The translations under genes were made by a program, and so were the position numbers. Below, in pieces: positions 17,283-27,862 of a stretch of 64,000 nt of DNA; the first letter of the stretch is position 1; each line of letters opens with the position of its first letter. This DNA comes from an uncultured Candidatus Saccharibacteria bacterium (GTDB lineage Bacteria > Patescibacteriota > Minisyncoccia > Phycocordibacterales > UBA6065): assembly GCA_964495425.1 (NCBI GenBank), contig CAZBVG010000002.1, forward strand, positions 78,570 to 142,569, written 5' to 3'. The notes under the pieces are model-generated. The model had not been told where the DNA came from. It made no database searches and worked only from the letters and a program-made list of their open reading frames with translations.

Positions 17283-17876
17283 TTATGTGTATTTCTTTAC
17301 AATTTTAAAATCGTTCAAAAGTTCTGCCCTCATTCCTCCGTTGTATAAGGCTACAGCTGGGTGATATAAAGCTATCACAATGACTTCACCATATAAAGTT
17401 TTTGCTTTGAATTCTTTACCATGAATTTTCGAAATTACGTTTAGGTCTGCTGCGATGCCATAGTTTTCGAAAATATATTTCATGGAATGACGGCCCAAGG
17501 TAACGATTGCTTTTGGTTTTAAAATTTCAATCTGTTGTTTAAGAAATGGGCCATATAAAGCAATTTCTGAGGTACTCGGGTCTCGATTCTCCGGAGGACG
17601 ATCCTTAACAAGATTTGTTATATACACTTTGGATCGATCCATCTGTATGGATGCTAACAGTTCATCTAAAAACTTTCCTGATCTGCCACAGAATGGTCTA
17701 CCTGACTTGGCTTCGTTTTCTCCCGGTGCTTCGCCGACAAACATTATATTAGCCTCACAATTTCCTTCCCCAATCACGGGAATATAATTATGTTCTTTAC
17801 GAAACTGGTACAGAGGAGATTGCGTTAAATGCAGTAGTTCGTTACTGATTTGTGTAAGTCTATCGGCATTAGTCAT
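17283..17876 (-). CDS. Uracil-DNA glycosylase, family 4
   Basis: GEAPGENEAKSGRPFCGRSGKFLD and HPAVALYN motifs typical of family-4 UDG. Start probably the ATG at 17876 rather than the ORF-track start at 17906, because a terminator hairpin lies upstream of it. Confidence 0.8.
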   Translation of the reverse strand: MTNADRLTQISNELLHLTQSPLYQFRKEHNYIPVIGEGNCEANIMFVGEAPGENEAKSGRPFCGRSGKFLDELLASIQMDRSKVYITNLVKDRPPENRDPSTSEIALYGPFLKQQIEILKPKAIVTLGRHSMKYIFENYGIAADLNVISKIHGKEFKAKTLYGEVIVIALYHPAVALYNGGMRAELLNDFKIVKKYT

Positions 17877-17895
17877 GGGCAAAGTATAACAAAAT

Positions 17896-17921
17896 AAAAA
17901 ACTCACCCGGCAATCGGGTGA
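17896..17921 (-). terminator. Hairpin CACCCG-GCAA-CGGGTG + T-run on minus, overlapping the stop codon of the 130-aa ORF
   Basis: Stem-loop followed by TTTTTTATTTT on the minus strand. Confidence 0.4.
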
Positions 17922-18295
17922 GTGAGATGAATTCGTTTTTTGCTCAGTCTATGAAGACGAACAAAATACTTCATGACTCTCTCAGCGGTCGGAAATTGTT
18001 CAGCGAACGCTTCCGGACCTCCGTTTTCCGTCCAATGCTTAACAACTTCCTCTCGTGTTACAGGCCGATTGTATGAAAGACCGGCCAAATACACGCTGTT
18101 AGGATCTTGACTGAAGTACTCCTGTGCAACGGAACGAATAAACGAGCCGCGACAGTTTGATTCTTGCTGAAGTCTGGTTACCTCAGCTTTCAATTGGGCA
18201 ATTTCGTTTTCAAGTTGAATAATTCGAGACTTATCGTTGAAATGGAGCACTTGCCCCACGTCGATACTGACAGGGTCATTGGTCTGCGGAATCAT
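17903..18295 (-). CDS. Hypothetical protein (130 aa)
   Basis: ORF in operon orientation between ogt and UDG. Coiled-coil-like N-terminal segment. No motif recognised. Confidence 0.45.
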   Translation of the reverse strand: MIPQTNDPVSIDVGQVLHFNDKSRIIQLENEIAQLKAEVTRLQQESNCRGSFIRSVAQEYFSQDPNSVYLAGLSYNRPVTREEVVKHWTENGGPEAFAEQFPTAERVMKYFVRLHRLSKKRIHLTHPIAG

Positions 18296-18366: not shown

Positions 18367-18666
18367 CTATGGCATACTTACACCTTCAGATTGCAGAAGC
18401 GCAACCTTTGCTTTGCTTCCCTTTGTACCACCCCGAATACCGTTGTAGCCTCCTACATGGCCATCTGAACGAATAACTCGGTGGCAAGGTATGGATAGAT
18501 CAGTATTGCGTGACATGATCATGCCGACCGCCCGAGCACCATGAGGACTTCCCGCACGCAAAGCAACATCACGATACGTTAGTGTTGCGCCAGATGGTAT
18601 GTTGCGAACGATATGTTCTACTTTCTCTTTAAAGGAGACTTGCTGTTTTGTTGCTTGATTCGTCAT
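18367..18666 (-). CDS. ogt: Methylated-DNA--protein-cysteine methyltransferase, minimal single-domain form (~99 aa)
   Basis: MGMT active-site motif PCHRVI plus HTH region (TYRDVALRAG…). I placed the start at the internal ATG (18666) preceded by an AAGAAAAAAG stretch. It overlaps the upstream gene by 38 nt. Confidence 0.7.
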   Translation of the reverse strand: MTNQATKQQVSFKEKVEHIVRNIPSGATLTYRDVALRAGSPHGARAVGMIMSRNTDLSIPCHRVIRSDGHVGGYNGIRGGTKGSKAKVALLQSEGVSMP

Positions 18667-19477
18667 CTTTTTTCTTGGTAGTTTTCTTTTCGCTCTTATC
18701 TTCAGACTTCTTGGCTGGTTTCGCAAATTTTGCCTGGACTTCCATAGCCAATTTTCGATAGTTGCAATACTCACATAATGTTCCTGGTTGAGGAAGTTCT
18801 TCTTTATCAAGACAGTCCTTGGCGTTGAGGATGGTCTTTTCAACCCAATCGTCTGAACCCGTATACGGAATGAGTGTGACTTCGAATTCTAACTTTCCAT
18901 CGAATGCTTTCTTATCACGTAGACCATTTGCATACACAAAATAACCAGTATCTGAGACCTTAAATCCCTTTCGACGCAATAACCATTGATACACCTCCAT
19001 TTGTCGCTTATATCCATCCTGCCACTCCGCATCGAGATTTACTTTTTCATCCTTAGACGTTGACTTGTAGTCAACTACAATAAGCTCTCCTTTTGGATTA
19101 ACCCACACGTCGTCAACGGCACCGCTAATAAGAAGTCCGGATTTGTCATGTCTGTATTGAATACCTTCAAAATTTTCACGCCACGTATTCATATCAGCGT
19201 GGGCAAACGGTATTGCATCAACACCGTATTCTGTCATAAGCGGATGCGAGGTTTTTGCAATACGATGCGCATCGAATTCCTTTTTTAAAAGATGATCAAC
19301 GGCAGAGTTAAGATTAAACGGAAAACCCTTTGGTCGAGAGACGCCAAGTTTATTATCAACATAAAAACATCTTGGGCACTCAACAAAAAGATCGATTTTT
19401 GATCGAGATAGTTTCCATTTTGAGCCGCCGTAATTCCAATCGGCGCTTCGCTTGCCTTTTAAAGGAAATGCTCCCAT
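18629..19477 (-). CDS. PD-(D/E)xK nuclease, Cas4/RecB-like, with 2+2 cysteines (putative Fe-S)
   Basis: N-terminal CPRCFY (Cas4-like CPRxFY), motif II GAVDDVW, motif III IVVDYKS, QxxxY (RQMEVYQW), C-terminal CEYC. Lys-rich acidic tail. Confidence 0.6.
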   Translation of the reverse strand: MGAFPLKGKRSADWNYGGSKWKLSRSKIDLFVECPRCFYVDNKLGVSRPKGFPFNLNSAVDHLLKKEFDAHRIAKTSHPLMTEYGVDAIPFAHADMNTWRENFEGIQYRHDKSGLLISGAVDDVWVNPKGELIVVDYKSTSKDEKVNLDAEWQDGYKRQMEVYQWLLRRKGFKVSDTGYFVYANGLRDKKAFDGKLEFEVTLIPYTGSDDWVEKTILNAKDCLDKEELPQPGTLCEYCNYRKLAMEVQAKFAKPAKKSEDKSEKKTTKKKDDESSNKTASLL

Positions 19478-19478
19478 G

Positions 19479-20312
19479 TTATTTGCACACGTTTATTACT
19501 TCCTCGATTACGGTATCTATTTTTCCTTTTTCAATACCGTAATCCGCCAGCTTATCTTTATGCTCAAGAAGATGCTTGCAAAGAATCATGCCCGCATCCA
19601 ATAACGACTTCTTTTCAGTTTGGGTTAATGTCAAAAGAGATGTAAGTGGATGAAGTTTTGCTTCATTGATTAAATCCTCAAGGTTTCCCTCTGCTGGATA
19701 ATTCCATCCAACCAATGATAGACCCTGACACTCGGCATACCTAATAGCATGATCTGTGAATTTTGTATTTGTAAAAAGTTGAAAAGAAGTCACTTTGCGT
19801 TTTTTGCCACCATATTCATGAACACTATTTTTCAAATCATCAAAACGTGCCCGTATGTAAAGTGCCACCTTAAGATCAGATTTAAGCCCAGGTTCATTGT
19901 GGAATTTGGCCTCAATAATGGAAAGTTTATCTCCCTTCCATGCAACAACATCTACCTCATGCTCTACGCAATTACCTTCAATAATTTGACCTGTAACTGC
20001 TTCATAACCTTTTGCTTTAAAAATTTCAGCAATAAGCTTTTCAAAAGGAAAGCCGCTTGGACCAAGATCCGCAATAGCTCTCTTCATTGAATAGCGCGCC
20101 GCAACGGGCTTTGCATCCTGTCTCAGAATCTCAAAAGCATGTTTATATATCTCAGAAGTTGGTATGCCATTTACAAGCTCTTTTTGAATATGGTCTGCAA
20201 TCCGATTAGCTTCTGAATCACTTGCTCCTGCCTTCCGCAAAGAAAGAATGAGTTTTGCAGGCACGAATACCTCCTGCTCACCAGTAGATTTAAGTACAAG
20301 AATATGTGTCAT
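19479..20312 (-). CDS. ATP-cone domain fused to Mrr-like (PD-(D/E)xK) restriction endonuclease domain
   Basis: N-terminal ~85 aa matches the ATP-cone pattern (VLKSTGEQEVFVPAKLILSLRKAG…). This is followed by an Mrr_cat-like core (FEKLIAEIFKAKGYEAV…VDVVAW…SIIEAKF). Confidence 0.6.
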   Translation of the reverse strand: MTHILVLKSTGEQEVFVPAKLILSLRKAGASDSEANRIADHIQKELVNGIPTSEIYKHAFEILRQDAKPVAARYSMKRAIADLGPSGFPFEKLIAEIFKAKGYEAVTGQIIEGNCVEHEVDVVAWKGDKLSIIEAKFHNEPGLKSDLKVALYIRARFDDLKNSVHEYGGKKRKVTSFQLFTNTKFTDHAIRYAECQGLSLVGWNYPAEGNLEDLINEAKLHPLTSLLTLTQTEKKSLLDAGMILCKHLLEHKDKLADYGIEKGKIDTVIEEVINVCK

Positions 20313-20334: not shown

Positions 20335-21381
20335 TTATTTCACGATACCTCCTCCAAGACACACATCACCTTCATATACTACGACCGACTGACCAGGTGC
20401 AATTACAAGCGACTCATTAAAAATGATGTGAGAGCCCTCAATAGCGCAGGGTAAAAGCGCTCCAAGGTGACGAATTCGTGCTTTATAGCTTGATCCCGGT
20501 GTTGGTTTTGTTGATATCCAATTTATAGAATCAAGCTGGAATTTCTTTTTTTCAATTGAAAGTTCACCATGTGATGATTTGTGAGAAACAGTAAGAGTGT
20601 TCTTTTCAAGATCTCGAGAAACAATATAATACGGCAAATCCTCAGGTGACTTAGTAGTGATAGTAAAACCGTGTCGCTCACCAAGTGTATGGAATACTGC
20701 CCCGTCATGCTCGCCTATGATTGCGCCCTTTTCATCAAGCACATTTCCCTTTTTTGCCTCGACGTAATGAGATAAGAATTCCTTCATACTTACCTTACCA
20801 ATAAAACAAAGTCCCTGGCTATCCTTTTTTTGAGCAACAGGAAGACCGTATTGTGCGGCAAGCTTTCTGGTATCAATTTTCTCCATGTCACCGACTGGGA
20901 AAAGTGTTTTTAAAAGATGCTCTGAGGTAAGAGTCCACAAAAAATACGTTTGATCCTTTCCATGATCTACGCCGGAAAGCAATTTCCCATGTTTTGATTG
21001 AGCATAATGACCTGTTGCTACATAGTCAGCGCCATTTTCCATTGCCCACTTATAAAATCCACCAAATTTCACATACTTGTTGCACATAACATCTGGATTT
21101 GGAGTTCGGCCAGCCTTATATTCAGAAATCATGTAATCAACAACCTCCTTTTTATATTCCTTTTCTAAATCAAGCGTAATAAACGGAATTCCGAGATGAA
21201 CACACACACGCATAGCATCAAGCCGATCTTCCTTCCAGGTACACTCATACCATTCAGGCTGCCAAACCTTTATAAATACACCAGTTACGTCAAAACCCTG
21301 CTTTTTAAGCAGTGCAGCAGAAACAGAGGAATCAACCCCTCCAGACATACCTACATATACTTTTTTGGAACCAGCGTTCAT
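20335..21381 (-). CDS. mnmA: tRNA-specific 2-thiouridylase MnmA
   Basis: PP-loop SGGVDSS, MnmA-like catalytic cysteines and length. Confidence 0.9.
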   Translation of the reverse strand: MNAGSKKVYVGMSGGVDSSVSAALLKKQGFDVTGVFIKVWQPEWYECTWKEDRLDAMRVCVHLGIPFITLDLEKEYKKEVVDYMISEYKAGRTPNPDVMCNKYVKFGGFYKWAMENGADYVATGHYAQSKHGKLLSGVDHGKDQTYFLWTLTSEHLLKTLFPVGDMEKIDTRKLAAQYGLPVAQKKDSQGLCFIGKVSMKEFLSHYVEAKKGNVLDEKGAIIGEHDGAVFHTLGERHGFTITTKSPEDLPYYIVSRDLEKNTLTVSHKSSHGELSIEKKKFQLDSINWISTKPTPGSSYKARIRHLGALLPCAIEGSHIIFNESLVIAPGQSVVVYEGDVCLGGGIVK

Positions 21382-24898: not shown

Positions 24899-27862
24899 CT
24901 ACCGTACTACGATTGAAACAAGTTTGCCTGGTACCACGATAATTTTCTCTGGCTGTTTCCCTTCTAACCATTTTTTAACATCTGGAAGCGCCAAGGCCTT
25001 TTGCTCAATTTCACTTTTTCCTGCTGTTTTTGCTGCTTCAAAGGTACCTCTTACTTTTCCATTTACCTGGACAACAATCGTAACTGACTCACTCACAAGC
25101 TTTGACTCATCTACCATTGGCCACTCTGACGTGTGGATTGATTTCTTGTTTCCAAGCATACTCCACAACTCCTCAGTTACATGAGGAGCAAGGGGTGCTA
25201 AAAGTTTAAGAAATGCCTCATAGAAATTCTTTGAAAGCGCTCCAGCCTTCTCCATTTCGTTCGAGAGGATCATTAGCGAGCTTACAGCCGTATTGTGTCG
25301 AAGGGTAGCAATATCATCAGTGACTTTTTTGATTGTTTTGTGGAGCAAGACATCGAGTTCATTACTCATCTGCGCATCCTTAGAGACTTTTTCAGATAAT
25401 TTCCAAACACGTTCTAAGAATCTGCGTGAACCGAGAATACCTGAGGTTGACCATGCAATTGCCTGATCGAAAGGACCCATGAACATCTCGTACACACGGA
25501 GAGTGTCCGCACCATATGTTTCAACAATGGTGTCAGGATTAACAACATTTCCAAAACGCTTCGACATTTTTCGGCCATCCTCACCCATAATAAGACCTAC
25601 CGACTGAAGTTTCTTGAAAGGCTCAGTCGTTGAGACTGCACCGATATCATATAGAAACTTGTGCCAGAATCGCGCATAAATCAAATGACGCGTTGCATGC
25701 TCTGCACCACCAACATAGAAATCAACTTGGTTCCAATATTTTTCTTTTTTCGTATCAACAAGTGATTTGGTATTTGCAGGATCCATATAACGAAGGTAAT
25801 ACCACGAAGAACCTGCCCATTGAGGCATAGTATTTGTTTCCCGTTTAAGAATCCTTGAATTCTTTCCTTTTCCAACTCTCACATATACCCATTTATCGAT
25901 TGCGGCTAAAGGAGATTCGCCGGTGCCAGTCGGTTCGTATGATTTAACCTTAGGTAGTGTAACCGGAAGATCCTTTTCACTTACCGAGACAATTTCGTGC
26001 GGCATGATGGATTCCAACTTTGCCCATAACGCATGAGCCTCCTTCCCGTTTTTTGAATTGAAATGACCAAAGCCATCCCACTCTTCAATCTTCCACGTTG
26101 AAGGAAGCTCACCGTGAGTTTCAGCCTGAACATACGGATCATCCTTTGAACGAATGAGCGTTATATTTGGTGTATACGTTGTTATCTGTTTGTAATCCAA
26201 AGGTTCCTGCCAAAACTTTTTAAGTGCAGGAATATCTGATTTTTGATCCTCTTTTTGCATTGATTCCCAATGCTTTTCGCTTCGTACGCGTCCTACCGCG
26301 CTAGCTACAAGGAAAAGGTGCCCGATATTACGTTTTGTTGTAGAAACTAAACGCAAGGCAGCATTTGATCCAAGGCTGTGCCCTACAATCAGGTCATCTG
26401 GACCGAAATTTTTTACCAGCGGTTCTAGTTCATTCATCCACGATTCAACCGTTGGGTGTTTCGATGTAGAAATAGTTGGATTAAATACCTCAACTCCCCG
26501 CTCTTCAAGAATCTGTTTAAGTTTTTTAAACCAGTGGTTAGTGCCATTACCCTCAAATCCATGAATAAGAAGAGCTTTTTTGGCTTTAAGTCCTTGTAGA
26601 AGAGGAAAAGGTTCGCCCCAGTAACGCTGTCGTGAGAACACCCAATCCTTAAGCTTGTACTTAACTACCCACTTACCACCAACTGATTCTGTGATCTTTT
26701 TTCGCGCATCTGTTGATTTCATGCCAGTAAAAGCACCCGAATCAATGAGTGTGTCCTGTTCATCAATAACCACCTTACTCATAAGGCTAAATTTTTGAGC
26801 AAACTGTTCATCTCTTTCATCGTGAGCAGGAACAGCCATCACTGCACCCGTTCCGTATTCAGCAAGTACATAATCTGCTACAAATACAGGTACTTCCTCA
26901 TTATTAGCTGGATTGATCGCGAAAACACCCTCAAGCTTTATACCTGTTTTATCTTTCTTAGCATCAGTTCTTTCAATCTCAGTCATTACGCGAGCCGAGG
27001 CAACATACTTAATGACTTCCGCATGATTCTTTATATTTTCCTTATGCTTAAGTATCTCAGTTACAAACGTGTGCTCAGGAGCAACAACTACATACGTAAC
27101 ACCGAAAAGTGTATCTGGCCGTGTAGTAAATACTTTAAGTTTTTCACCTCTACCTTTAATAGCAAAATCAATTTCAGCTCCCTCTGAACGACCGATCCAA
27201 TTTCGCTGTGATTCCTTTATTGATTCCGGCCAATCGAGCCCATCAATATCTTTCAAAAGTCGATCAGCATACTCAGTGATTTTAAGAACCCACTGTCGCA
27301 TCGGCTTCTTTTCAACTGGAGTACCGCAGCGTTCGCACTTTCCATCCTCCACATCCTCATTAGCTAAGCCTGTTTTACATGAAGGACACCAATTAATTGG
27401 TTCATATGACTCATACGCTAGTCCTTTTTCTAATAGCTTAAGGAAAATCCACTGTGTCCATTTGTAAAATTTTGGATCTGTCGTATTAACCTCTCGCGCC
27501 CAGTCGTAATCAAAACCAATAATTTCAAGCTGCTTTTTATATCGAGCGACGTTCTTGGCAACCGAATCCATGGGATTAGTTTTTGTTTTGATGGCATAGT
27601 TTTCAGCCGGCAAGCCAAAAGCATCAAATCCCATTGGATGAAGTACATTAAAGCCAGCCATCCTTTTCTGACGAGCTACAATATCAGTGGCGATGTAGCC
27701 TTTTGGATGACCAACATGGAGCCCTTCACCTGAAGGGTATGGAAACATATCAAGAATATAAAACTTCGGTTTTTTAAATGAATCCTCTGTCTTATAAACT
27801 TTTGTCTTCTCCCACTCCTTCTGCCACTTCTTTTCTATTTTTCTGTGATCGTATTGAGTCAT
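24899..27862 (-). CDS. leuS: Leucine--tRNA ligase carrying an inserted serine-hydrolase (alpha/beta hydrolase, RBBP9/YdeN-like) domain
   Basis: HIGH (HVGHP), CP1 editing region (TTRPDT…AHDERD), DWVFSRQRYWGEPFP, KMSKR, conserved C-terminus (VQVNGKVRG…VVPGKLVSIVV). About 200 extra aa between RYWGEPFP and the SSWYY motif contain GHSLG plus Asp/His. Confidence 0.9.
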   Translation of the reverse strand: MTQYDHRKIEKKWQKEWEKTKVYKTEDSFKKPKFYILDMFPYPSGEGLHVGHPKGYIATDIVARQKRMAGFNVLHPMGFDAFGLPAENYAIKTKTNPMDSVAKNVARYKKQLEIIGFDYDWAREVNTTDPKFYKWTQWIFLKLLEKGLAYESYEPINWCPSCKTGLANEDVEDGKCERCGTPVEKKPMRQWVLKITEYADRLLKDIDGLDWPESIKESQRNWIGRSEGAEIDFAIKGRGEKLKVFTTRPDTLFGVTYVVVAPEHTFVTEILKHKENIKNHAEVIKYVASARVMTEIERTDAKKDKTGIKLEGVFAINPANNEEVPVFVADYVLAEYGTGAVMAVPAHDERDEQFAQKFSLMSKVVIDEQDTLIDSGAFTGMKSTDARKKITESVGGKWVVKYKLKDWVFSRQRYWGEPFPLLQGLKAKKALLIHGFEGNGTNHWFKKLKQILEERGVEVFNPTISTSKHPTVESWMNELEPLVKNFGPDDLIVGHSLGSNAALRLVSTTKRNIGHLFLVASAVGRVRSEKHWESMQKEDQKSDIPALKKFWQEPLDYKQITTYTPNITLIRSKDDPYVQAETHGELPSTWKIEEWDGFGHFNSKNGKEAHALWAKLESIMPHEIVSVSEKDLPVTLPKVKSYEPTGTGESPLAAIDKWVYVRVGKGKNSRILKRETNTMPQWAGSSWYYLRYMDPANTKSLVDTKKEKYWNQVDFYVGGAEHATRHLIYARFWHKFLYDIGAVSTTEPFKKLQSVGLIMGEDGRKMSKRFGNVVNPDTIVETYGADTLRVYEMFMGPFDQAIAWSTSGILGSRRFLERVWKLSEKVSKDAQMSNELDVLLHKTIKKVTDDIATLRHNTAVSSLMILSNEMEKAGALSKNFYEAFLKLLAPLAPHVTEELWSMLGNKKSIHTSEWPMVDESKLVSESVTIVVQVNGKVRGTFEAAKTAGKSEIEQKALALPDVKKWLEGKQPEKIIVVPGKLVSIVVR
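26003..26596 (-). other. In-frame serine-hydrolase-like domain insertion within leuS (residues ~423-620)
   Basis: LLIHGFEGNGTNHWF…DLIVGHSLGSNAALRL…RSKDDPYV…WDGFGHFN resembles the YdeN/RBBP9 Ser_hydrolase family with a Ser-Asp-His triad. Confidence 0.6.

Follow-up and report, generated by a model that had tools for sequence, protein, structure and literature searches.

We examined a 64,000-nucleotide stretch of contig CAZBVG010000002.1, from an uncultured Candidatus Saccharibacteria bacterium (hereafter the window), and within it a single gene whose 277-amino-acid product joins an N-terminal ATP-cone to a PD-(D/E)XK nuclease core and a C-terminal (HhH)2-like tail. This three-domain architecture we regard as practically certain. 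Residues expected to contact the nucleotide and residues expected to cut nucleic acid are both conserved from bacteria to archaea, and on this sequence evidence the protein is, with reasonable probability, an active nuclease regulated by adenine nucleotides. Our preferred reading of its function, offered tentatively and at a little short of even confidence, is a stand-alone nuclease gated by adenine nucleotides through an oligomeric switch and serving nucleic-acid turnover or salvage.

Gene model and domain architecture

The open reading frame (ORF) runs on the minus strand from an ATG at 20312 to a TAA at 19481-19479. An earlier note on this DNA, made from the letters alone, had proposed an ATP-cone fused to an Mrr-like nuclease here; its coordinates prove exact, stop codon included, and the strand, which it had left unstated, is minus. 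The peptides it quoted (VLKSTGEQEVFVPAKLILSLRKAG, FEKLIAEIFKAKGYEAV, VDVVAW and IIEAKF) are all found in the minus-strand translation, and a plus-strand reading of 19479-20312 was rejected because that frame is full of stop codons. The gene is laid out as follows.

19479..20312, minus strand: whole ORF, 277 amino acids plus stop, comprising ATP-cone, PD-(D/E)XK nuclease and (HhH)2-like tail
20073..20300, minus strand: ATP-cone domain, amino acids 5-80 (Pfam, Foldseek, hhalign)
20055..20072, minus strand: linker ADLGPS, amino acids 81-86, with a near-invariant G84-P85 between sensor and nuclease
19710..20054, minus strand: PD-(D/E)XK core (Mrr_cat / AF1548-like), amino acids 87-201 (Pfam, match to 1Y88)
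20040-20042 (E91), 19950-19952 (D121), 19911-19913 (E134) and 19905-19907 (K136), minus strand: codons of the predicted catalytic residues
19482..19700, minus strand: C-terminal AF1548-like domain, amino acids 205-277, (HhH)2-like / Rad51-N-terminal-like, putative duplex binder

An AlphaFold2 model of the protein, built from an alignment of 39 homologues, reached a pLDDT of 85.9 and a pTM of 0.80. No family-level model in NCBIfam matches the ATP-cone nuclease, the YraN and 2-PGK scores being at noise level only.

The sensor domain retains the nucleotide-contact residues of NrdR

Pfam assigns amino acids 5-80 to the ATP-cone family PF03477 (profile positions 2-85 of 88) at 28.4 bits, above the curated gathering cut-off of 25.8. 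In the model, two strands (residues 5-7 and 13-15) precede four helices (18-27, 32-45, 52-66 and 68-81), which is the ATP-cone fold of a beta-hairpin lid over a four-helix cone, and the domain superposes on the cones of Escherichia coli NrdR (9fvr, 9fxk) with a root-mean-square deviation (rmsd) of 1.8-2.0 Å over 81-83 residues (Foldseek). A profile of 48 N-terminal domains searched against the PDB matched the Prevotella NrdD cone (E=7.7e-4) and the NrdR cone (E=8e-3) once designed helical repeats had been set aside; a single-sequence phmmer search of the N-terminal 86 amino acids against the PDB returned designed helical repeats only.

Alignment to E. coli NrdR by hhalign gave a probability of 92.9% (E=3.8e-7), using an NrdR sequence whose numbering agrees with every residue named in bioRxiv 10.1101/2025.03.28.645925. 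In this alignment V6, K8, S9, E14, F16, K20, L21, T52 and I55 pair with NrdR V51, K53, S54, E59, F61, K65, L66, S105 and I108, all of them inner-site nucleotide contacts (bioRxiv 10.1101/2025.03.28.645925), and Y74 pairs with Tyr131, the gate residue associated with discrimination between ATP and dATP (section 2.4.2 of the same preprint). Conservation was scored in three sets, namely 39 close relatives, 150 representatives of 50%-identity clusters, and 252 full-length bacterial and archaeal members. In the last of these, K8 is conserved in 97%, E14 in 81%, F16 in 93%, K20 in 96% and Y74 in 98%; position 52 is Thr in 92% and Ser in another 7%, and the second residue of the common Lys-Arg pair, Ser9 here, is Ala in 46%, Arg in 24% and Ser in 12%. 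Because the NrdR contact residues and the gate tyrosine are conserved, the cone likely holds a functional nucleotide pocket, and gating of the nuclease by ATP or dATP is plausible. The proposal of an N-terminal ATP-cone is thus upheld by the Pfam score, the superposition on NrdR and the retained contact residues.

An Mrr_cat-family core with an invariant active site and a third domain

The remainder of the protein, which had been described as Mrr_cat-like, scores 26.3 bits against PF04471 over amino acids 87-201 (gathering cut-off 21) and matches the sequence of PDB entry 1Y88 at E=2e-29 over amino acids 92-272. The C-terminal two-thirds of the model matches the same entry at E=9e-14 with a TM score of 0.78 and 34% identity (Foldseek), and the modeled core (helix 87-100, strands 104-112, 117-126 and 129-136, helix 143-160) has an alpha-beta-beta-beta-alpha-beta fold; here too the initial assignment holds. 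Seven residues, E91, E119, D121, E134, K136, R156 and D159, are 100% conserved in all three sets of relatives. The D...E-A-K signature singled out in the earlier note corresponds to D121/E134/A135/K136, of which D121, E134 and K136 are invariant in our alignments and align to D38, E51 and K53 of 1Y88, residues predicted to be catalytic there (PMC1821046, PMC1874628).

Other positions of the nuclease domain are also strongly kept among the 252 members. C115 and C195 (codons inside 19710-20054) are each 96% conserved from bacteria to archaea, and H118 and H138 are conserved in 90% and 94%; the cysteine pair and the two histidines could form a disulphide, a metal site or a redox switch. Some members are longer, at 311-403 amino acids (P0167, P0184, P0196, P0214), and their match to the query is broken near residue 162, which indicates an insertion in a variable loop of the nuclease domain.

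The earlier note did not include the third domain. PF22357 (AF1548-like_C) scores 21.5 bits at amino acids 235-275 in the full-length protein and 23.6 bits with the isolated domain, against a gathering cut-off of 23.9, and it matches 29 of 33 family members at E<=1 (best 1.8e-22); HHH_5 matches eight of these 33 (best E=7e-4) and RAD51D_N two. The domain contains an invariant LHP-x-T motif, and its family profile matches residues 125-196 of 1Y88 at E=3.6e-22 and, weakly, the N-terminal DNA-binding domain of Rad51 (1b22, E=0.037). These similarities indicate an (HhH)2-like module that would bind duplex nucleic acid without sequence specificity.

The fusion is widespread and already catalogued

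In a 90%-clustered protein database, 5033 relatives were found at E<=1e-3, the closest being 277-amino-acid proteins of Patescibacteria/Paceibacterota, and NCBI names relatives either 'ATP cone domain-containing protein' or 'restriction endonuclease'. At 50% identity, 1172 clusters match (456 of them at E<=1e-30), nearly all of 270-290 amino acids and aligned end to end, with representatives covering amino acids 2-277, and relatives occur in at least 591 GTDB species genomes. A search with an AF1548 fragment recovered the three-domain protein in Archaeoglobus, Geoglobus, Ferroglobus, Hadesarchaea, Aenigmarchaeota and Nanoarchaeota, where full-length members of 261-268 amino acids carry the same three Pfam domains (one bears the source name 'Restriction endonuclease/ATP cone domain'). 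A search with a Pontibacter member added at least 7522 further proteins (90% clusters), many of them from Bacteroidota such as Pontibacter, Adhaeribacter, Sporocytophaga, Flavobacterium, Cyclobacterium and Saprospiraceae. The fusion is therefore spread across Patescibacteria, Bacteroidota, Chlamydiota, Archaeoglobi and DPANN, and PF03477 is precomputed for most relatives. Given thousands of database-labeled members across bacteria and archaea, it is a widespread, old and already catalogued combination and not a new architecture, so that the novelty implied by the earlier note is overstated.

The closest structurally known relative is AF1548 of Archaeoglobus fulgidus (PDB 1Y88, a structural genomics entry), which belongs to the same family and has the same catalytic D/E/K and the same kind of C-terminal domain (PF22357, just under the cut-off in the window protein). 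Its full-length archaeal product is a 265-amino-acid protein with the same three domains, ATP-cone included: the first 80-odd residues are a canonical cone (MLRVRKRDGRLEEF...). The crystallized 'AF1548' is a mis-started, truncated ORF, chain residues 22-197 corresponding to residues 90-265 of the 265-amino-acid product (P0271; L083-L084, 6001-6798). Because the 1Y88 construct starts at residue 90, the only solved structure of the family lacks both the sensor and the helix-1 Glu. The two proteins differ in that the AF1548 cone has the canonical K-R-D-G where the window protein has K-S-T-G, and they share about 34% identity across different domains of life.

Our literature search found no biochemical study of the ATP-cone/nuclease fusion or of any member, many subscription papers being outside its coverage; it likewise found nothing on AF1548 function beyond the catalytic-residue prediction, and nothing on the four-gene cassette described below.

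A recurrent operon points to a possible role in regulated nucleic-acid breakdown

Only two relatives were found in 72,556 plasmids, one from Pontibacter actiniarum (Bacteroidota) and one from Criblamydia sequanensis (Chlamydiota). On both plasmids the ATP-cone nuclease is the first gene of a four-gene operon, whose components share 49-60% identity across the two phyla. The other three genes are annotated, in order, 'MBL fold metallo-hydrolase', 'thymidine phosphorylase family protein' and 'ribose-phosphate pyrophosphokinase'. The first, a beta-CASP nuclease that also has an RMMBL domain, is most similar to archaeal aCPSF1. The second is a phosphorylase of the 500-amino-acid archaeal type, scoring 601.6 bits against TIGR02645 (cut-off 434.6) and 506.5 bits, just under the cut-off of 535, against the AMP phosphorylase equivalog TIGR03327. 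The third (Prs-like) passes PRK07199. Genes for phosphoketolase, glycogen phosphorylase, acetate kinase and glucoamylase flank the Criblamydia operon.

L089, 1972-6597: four-gene cassette
L090, 6995-11602: four-gene cassette
L091-L170: loci of the Bacteroidota-type branch

The same pairing recurs in 80 metagenome loci of the Bacteroidota-type branch, where the beta-CASP gene is found in 33 and is the immediate downstream neighbor in 28 of the 69 that could be scored; 14 of the 80 have the thymidine phosphorylase family gene and 11 the Prs-like gene. Other genes in these loci encode P-type ATPases (27), tandem universal stress proteins (24), PFK (10), a GAPDH-like protein (10), a 2-hydroxyacid dehydrogenase (9) and MgtC (8), and one further family member precedes genes for ribulose-phosphate epimerase, transketolase and transaldolase. 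The pairing with beta-CASP, nucleotide and pentose-phosphate genes is the strongest functional clue available, and it points to regulated breakdown feeding nucleotide or pentose metabolism: a role in regulated nucleic-acid breakdown is suggested because the nuclease is recurrently paired with a second nuclease and with nucleotide and pentose-phosphate enzymes.

From here we infer a scheme: which ligand binds, how the oligomeric state acts as a switch, which way regulation runs, what the substrate is and what physiological role the protein has in this organism. The N-terminal cone would bind adenine nucleotides in an NrdR-like pocket, and the Mg2+-dependent PD-(D/E)XK endonuclease core, with E91, D121 and E134-x-K136, would cut nucleic acid that the (HhH)2-like tail would grip by its backbone, irrespective of sequence. 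The nucleotide bound in the cone (ATP versus dATP, or occupancy itself) would shift the oligomeric state and in this way activate or silence the nuclease; judging from NrdR and ribonucleotide reductases, an oligomeric switch is the most likely mode of control. As for direction, our guess is that a low adenine-nucleotide or dATP pool would permit cutting and a full pool would block it. The role would then be controlled nucleic-acid breakdown for nucleotide economy, possibly under energy stress, rather than restriction of foreign DNA.

Two known kinds of protein help to place this scheme. NrdR shares the cone fold, the inner-site contacts, the gate tyrosine and, in E. coli, the Lys-Ser pair, and probably also the principle that adenine nucleotides reset an oligomeric state and thereby the action on DNA. 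It differs in carrying an N-terminal zinc ribbon, where the window protein has a nuclease and an (HhH)2-like tail on the C-terminal side of its cone; the window protein does not belong to the NrdR family, and no link to nrd genes appeared in the contexts examined. Can2, Card1 and Cdn1 also place an N-terminal sensor of an adenine-nucleotide-derived ligand before a PD-(D/E)XK nuclease, a resemblance in design and not in family membership. The whole-chain Foldseek matches to this group (E of about 2e-4 to 1e-3, with Can2 and Cdn1 at about 2e-4) are loose superpositions with a TM score of about 0.3 and an rmsd of 11-19 Å. Their sensor is a CARF domain activated by cyclic oligoadenylate, whereas the window protein has an ATP-cone and no CRISPR or CBASS context; its ligand is presumably a primary metabolite, ATP or dATP, and not a second messenger. 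Assignment as a CARF nuclease effector of the Can2/Card1 kind was rejected, the sensor being an ATP-cone by both profile and structure. By analogy, the window protein may nevertheless work as CARF nucleases do, with a ligand sensor driving a PD-(D/E)XK nuclease.

Several observations weigh against reading this protein as a nucleotide-gated nuclease of turnover or salvage. The cassette genes are absent within 6 kb of the nuclease in 80 Paceibacteria loci, and absent from the whole 64-kb window and from the archaeal loci checked alongside; because the clade of the window lacks the cassette, this evidence applies to the family and not to the locus. Archaeal neighborhoods are heterogeneous: genes for CorA, MscS, a permease-Usp fusion, Prim-Pol and other proteins occur, but no partner recurs. 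A rationale based on salvage in symbiotic, small-genome lineages fails family-wide because Archaeoglobus is free-living. The canonical Lys-Arg of many ATP-cones is Lys-Ser in this protein, as it also is in E. coli NrdR. The genes downstream in the clade of the window are of DNA-repair types (a Cas4-like nuclease, a methyltransferase and a glycosylase, described below), and the RMMBL domain of the beta-CASP partner hints at RNA, not DNA, as substrate.

In Archaeoglobales the nuclease gene and an ion-channel gene overlap, start on stop; the channel is CorA in Ferroglobus and, in A. fulgidus, MscS. MscS also lies near the nuclease in another archaeal contig, and in the surroundings of Bacteroidota members MgtC and P-type ATPases are found repeatedly. 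These adjacencies may reflect a link to Mg2+ or ion homeostasis, or coincidence.

L081, 4958-6786: ion-channel-adjacent archaeal locus
L083, 5193-6798: ion-channel-adjacent archaeal locus
L171, 3274-4101: ion-channel-adjacent archaeal locus

In the window the gene behaves as vertically inherited housekeeping DNA

The window belongs to the core chromosome of a Paceibacteria-type genome, with nearly all genes on the minus strand, among them dnaJ, dnaK, rpoA, alaS, pepF, leuS, ychF, G6PD, dinB and ddl, as well as uvrC, uvrA, uvrB, tgt, rpoD, dnaG, rpoC and rpoB. The local order is mltG, mnmA, ATP-cone nuclease, Cas4/RecB-like nuclease, O6-methylguanine-DNA methyltransferase-type protein (MGMT), a 130-amino-acid ORF, uracil-DNA glycosylase superfamily protein (UDG) and pepF. 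Frequencies below refer to 80 related genome loci (Paceibacteria).

20335..21381, minus strand: mnmA (tRNA 2-thiouridylase), the gene immediately upstream, 22 nt away; upstream in 77 of 80 loci
18629..19477, minus strand: Cas4/RecB-like PD-(D/E)XK nuclease, 282 amino acids (PDDEXK_1, 8e-15); downstream in 31 of 80 loci
18367..18843, minus strand: MGMT, with a PCHR active-site motif (DNA_binding_1, 1.3e-24); in 21 of 80 loci
17283..17906, minus strand: UDG (UDG, 1e-32); downstream in 48 of 80 loci
17901..17923, minus strand: terminator-like hairpin with a 9-bp stem and T-run, the first downstream, after the 130-amino-acid ORF (consensus match only)

Across these loci a block of leuS, a sigma-r4-HARE-HTH gene, a gene for a 414-amino-acid protein, mltG, mnmA and the nuclease is conserved, leading through further genes to alaS, and the gap between mnmA and the nuclease has a median of about 37 nt. 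Nuclease identity co-varies with that of eight of the nine neighbors tested (rho 0.34-0.87; the exception is alaS, at -0.24), and its median of 53% lies inside the range of the neighbors, 42-68%. In comparison with the closest relative, the ratio of nonsynonymous to synonymous substitution rates (dN/dS) comes to 0.04 (dS is saturated), in keeping with purifying selection, and the GC content of the gene is unremarkable (38.8% vs. 42.4%). By its synteny, co-divergence, dN/dS and GC content, the gene shows vertically inherited, housekeeping behavior.

The ATG of the Cas4/RecB-like gene lies 1 nt past the stop of the ATP-cone nuclease, and for this reason the two nucleases are probably co-translated. 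The hairpin at 17901..17923 is a possible end of a transcription unit running from mnmA to the 130-amino-acid ORF. The Cas4/RecB-like nuclease itself has N-terminal CxxC and C-terminal CxxC cysteines, a possible Fe-S cluster. The MGMT ORF as listed (TTG start) overlaps the Cas4/RecB-like gene by about 215 nt, and because of this overlap its true start is probably internal.

Alternative explanations

A repair role is possible. In its fullest form, which we think unlikely though far from negligible, the protein would serve DNA repair or recombination as a structure-specific nuclease of junctions, flaps, forks or damaged duplex, working in the manner of Hjc or XPF/Mus81, with the cone coupling cutting to the supply of deoxynucleotides or ATP that repair synthesis requires. 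The Cas4/RecB-like, MGMT and UDG genes that follow it in 31, 21 and 48 of the 80 loci speak for this, as does the resemblance of its C-terminal domain to the DNA-binding module of Rad51 N-terminal and HHH_5 type; a Hadesarchaeal member lies near a LigD Prim-Pol and endonuclease V. The adjacency to repair genes carries little weight, however, because the whole leuS-to-alaS block is syntenic, including the unrelated mltG, mnmA and pepF, and repair neighbors are absent from Bacteroidota, Chlamydiota and most archaeal contexts. Nor is the gene associated with recA, ruv or other genes of recombination.

Resemblance to Holliday junction resolvases and related enzymes bears on the same question. Some relatives carry a precomputed PF01870 and some are labeled 'Holliday junction resolvase' by JGI, and the window protein has a weak Hjc profile match (E=0.039); assignment to Hjc was rejected because this match reaches 14.3 bits against the Pfam cut-off of 21.1 and is confined to amino acids 90-140. 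XPF and Mus81 have a restriction-endonuclease-fold core followed by a C-terminal (HhH)2 module. The window protein shares this order of core and (HhH)2-like tail with XPF, Mus81 and Hef, but it has no ERCC4 signature, none of these enzymes, Hjc included, has an ATP-cone, and no XPF, Mus81, Hef or Hjc structure is among the top 50 Foldseek matches of the model.

That the substrate is RNA seems to us improbable. On this explanation the protein would be an endoribonuclease that, together with its beta-CASP partner, degrades ribosomal or other RNA at low ATP and passes nucleoside monophosphates to the phosphorylase. The recurrent partner has the RMMBL 'RNA specificity' domain and is closest to archaeal aCPSF1, the branch island of universal stress proteins, PFK, GAPDH-like protein, 2-hydroxyacid dehydrogenase, phosphoketolase and acetate kinase has a flavor of starvation and fermentation, and mnmA, a tRNA enzyme, is conserved upstream in Paceibacteria; some PD-(D/E)XK enzymes, such as Can2 and the tRNA-splicing endonuclease, do cleave RNA. 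Yet an Mrr_cat/AF1548/Hjc-like core with an (HhH)2-like tail is typical of duplex-DNA enzymes, beta-CASP enzymes include DNA nucleases such as SNM1/Artemis, and the beta-CASP partner is missing from the clade of the window.

The earlier note had suggested interest as a defense or repair enzyme, and its defense half fares poorly. We give very little credence to a modification-dependent Type IV restriction or anti-phage nuclease of the Mrr kind, whose cone would sense the nucleotide pool as changed by infection. The core does fall in Mrr_cat, with the (E)...D...ExK motif of E. coli Mrr and other Type IV enzymes, 1Y88 is placed with Mrr_cat in a survey of PD-(D/E)XK proteins (PMC3424549), many members go by the name 'restriction endonuclease' at NCBI, and two members are plasmid-borne. 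Manipulation of the nucleotide pool, moreover, is a known defense theme.

Domain content and genomic behavior argue the other way. PADLOC-DB 2.0 gave no significant match, the best being a partial one to the Mrr-like nuclease tail of ZorD (E=1e-4, 18 bits), and its CARF_PDDEXK models matched the nuclease part at 2.5e-3 or worse. No Mrr_N winged helix or equivalent reader of modified DNA is present, Pfam finding only ATP-cone, Mrr_cat, AF1548-like_C and a sub-threshold Hjc; where Mrr has such an N-terminal reader, the window protein has its ATP-cone, together with the (HhH)2-like tail. A partner methyltransferase for the nuclease was found in none of about 175 loci, which included its neighbors in the window, the sole adjacent methyltransferase (archaeal locus L171) being paired with its own MjaI-type endonuclease; on this ground a classical restriction-modification system was rejected. 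No other defense genes lie nearby in the window, and no relatives were found in IMG/VR viral contigs or GenBank phages. The setting is housekeeping and vertical, not sporadic or defense-like, with strong synteny, co-divergence and low dN/dS, and length and architecture are uniform over about 1170 50%-identity clusters, unlike those of fast-shuffling defense genes. As a Mrr-type Type IV enzyme the candidate therefore failed its tests, with neither the reader domain nor the genomic behavior expected. Housekeeping synteny, the missing methyltransferase, the PADLOC result and the absence of phage copies together tell against a role in defense.

Weakest of all, and hardly credible, is a catalytically dead, NrdR-like transcription regulator, whose nuclease fold and HhH tail would only bind DNA and whose cone would set the oligomerization of a repressor: NrdR is a precedent for a nucleotide-sensing repressor made of an ATP-cone and a DNA-binding module, and JGI labels one member 'transcriptional regulator NrdR family protein', but no conserved target operon adjoins the gene, and the reading is disfavored because E91, D121, E134 and K136 are 100% conserved in the 252 bacterial and archaeal members.

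Other features of the window

The leucyl-tRNA synthetase LeuRS carries a Ser_hydrolase domain (PF06821, amino acids 431-608, 69 bits) after its editing domain, an insertion unusual for this enzyme, and the protein joining Sigma70 region 4 to a HARE-HTH domain is the best-conserved neighbor in the block, at 62-97% identity in 63 of 80 Paceibacteria loci. Three large ORFs have no Pfam match; the one of 414 amino acids, between the sigma-like gene and mltG, is kept in 68 of 80 related loci.

24899-27862, minus strand: LeuRS, 987 amino acids
23757-24785, minus strand: Sigma70 region 4 / HARE-HTH protein, 342 amino acids
22446-23690, minus strand: ORF of 414 amino acids
10581-11951, minus strand: ORF of 456 amino acids
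11969-13177, minus strand: ORF of 402 amino acids

Implications

This locus holds an ordinary member of its family in an ordinary housekeeping location, neither a new architecture nor a defense system, and its interest lies in the family. What is known of ATP-cones concerns almost exclusively the regulation of deoxynucleotide synthesis, in ribonucleotide reductases and NrdR. A bolder extension of the nucleotide-gated reading, which we consider doubtful, is that the family forms the first class of nucleases under ATP-cone control and a salvage-side counterpart of ribonucleotide reductase, cutting only when the (deoxy)adenylate pool is low and feeding a route from endonuclease to beta-CASP exonuclease, nucleoside-monophosphate phosphorylase and a PRPP-synthetase-like enzyme. 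If true, such a pathway would turn nucleic acid back into nucleotides or pentose carbon; it could explain both the retention of the family in small-genome Patescibacteria and DPANN that depend on scavenged nucleotides and its placement in the stress and fermentation islands of Bacteroidota.

The family is large and strongly conserved, including in lineages such as Patescibacteria and DPANN whose nucleotide economy is poorly understood, and the soluble, 277-amino-acid protein is a cheap, well-defined biochemical target with clear mutants. Should it prove to be an active nuclease switched by ATP or dATP, it would be the first case of an ATP-cone controlling the destruction of nucleic acid, and a new, regulated entry to nucleotide salvage.

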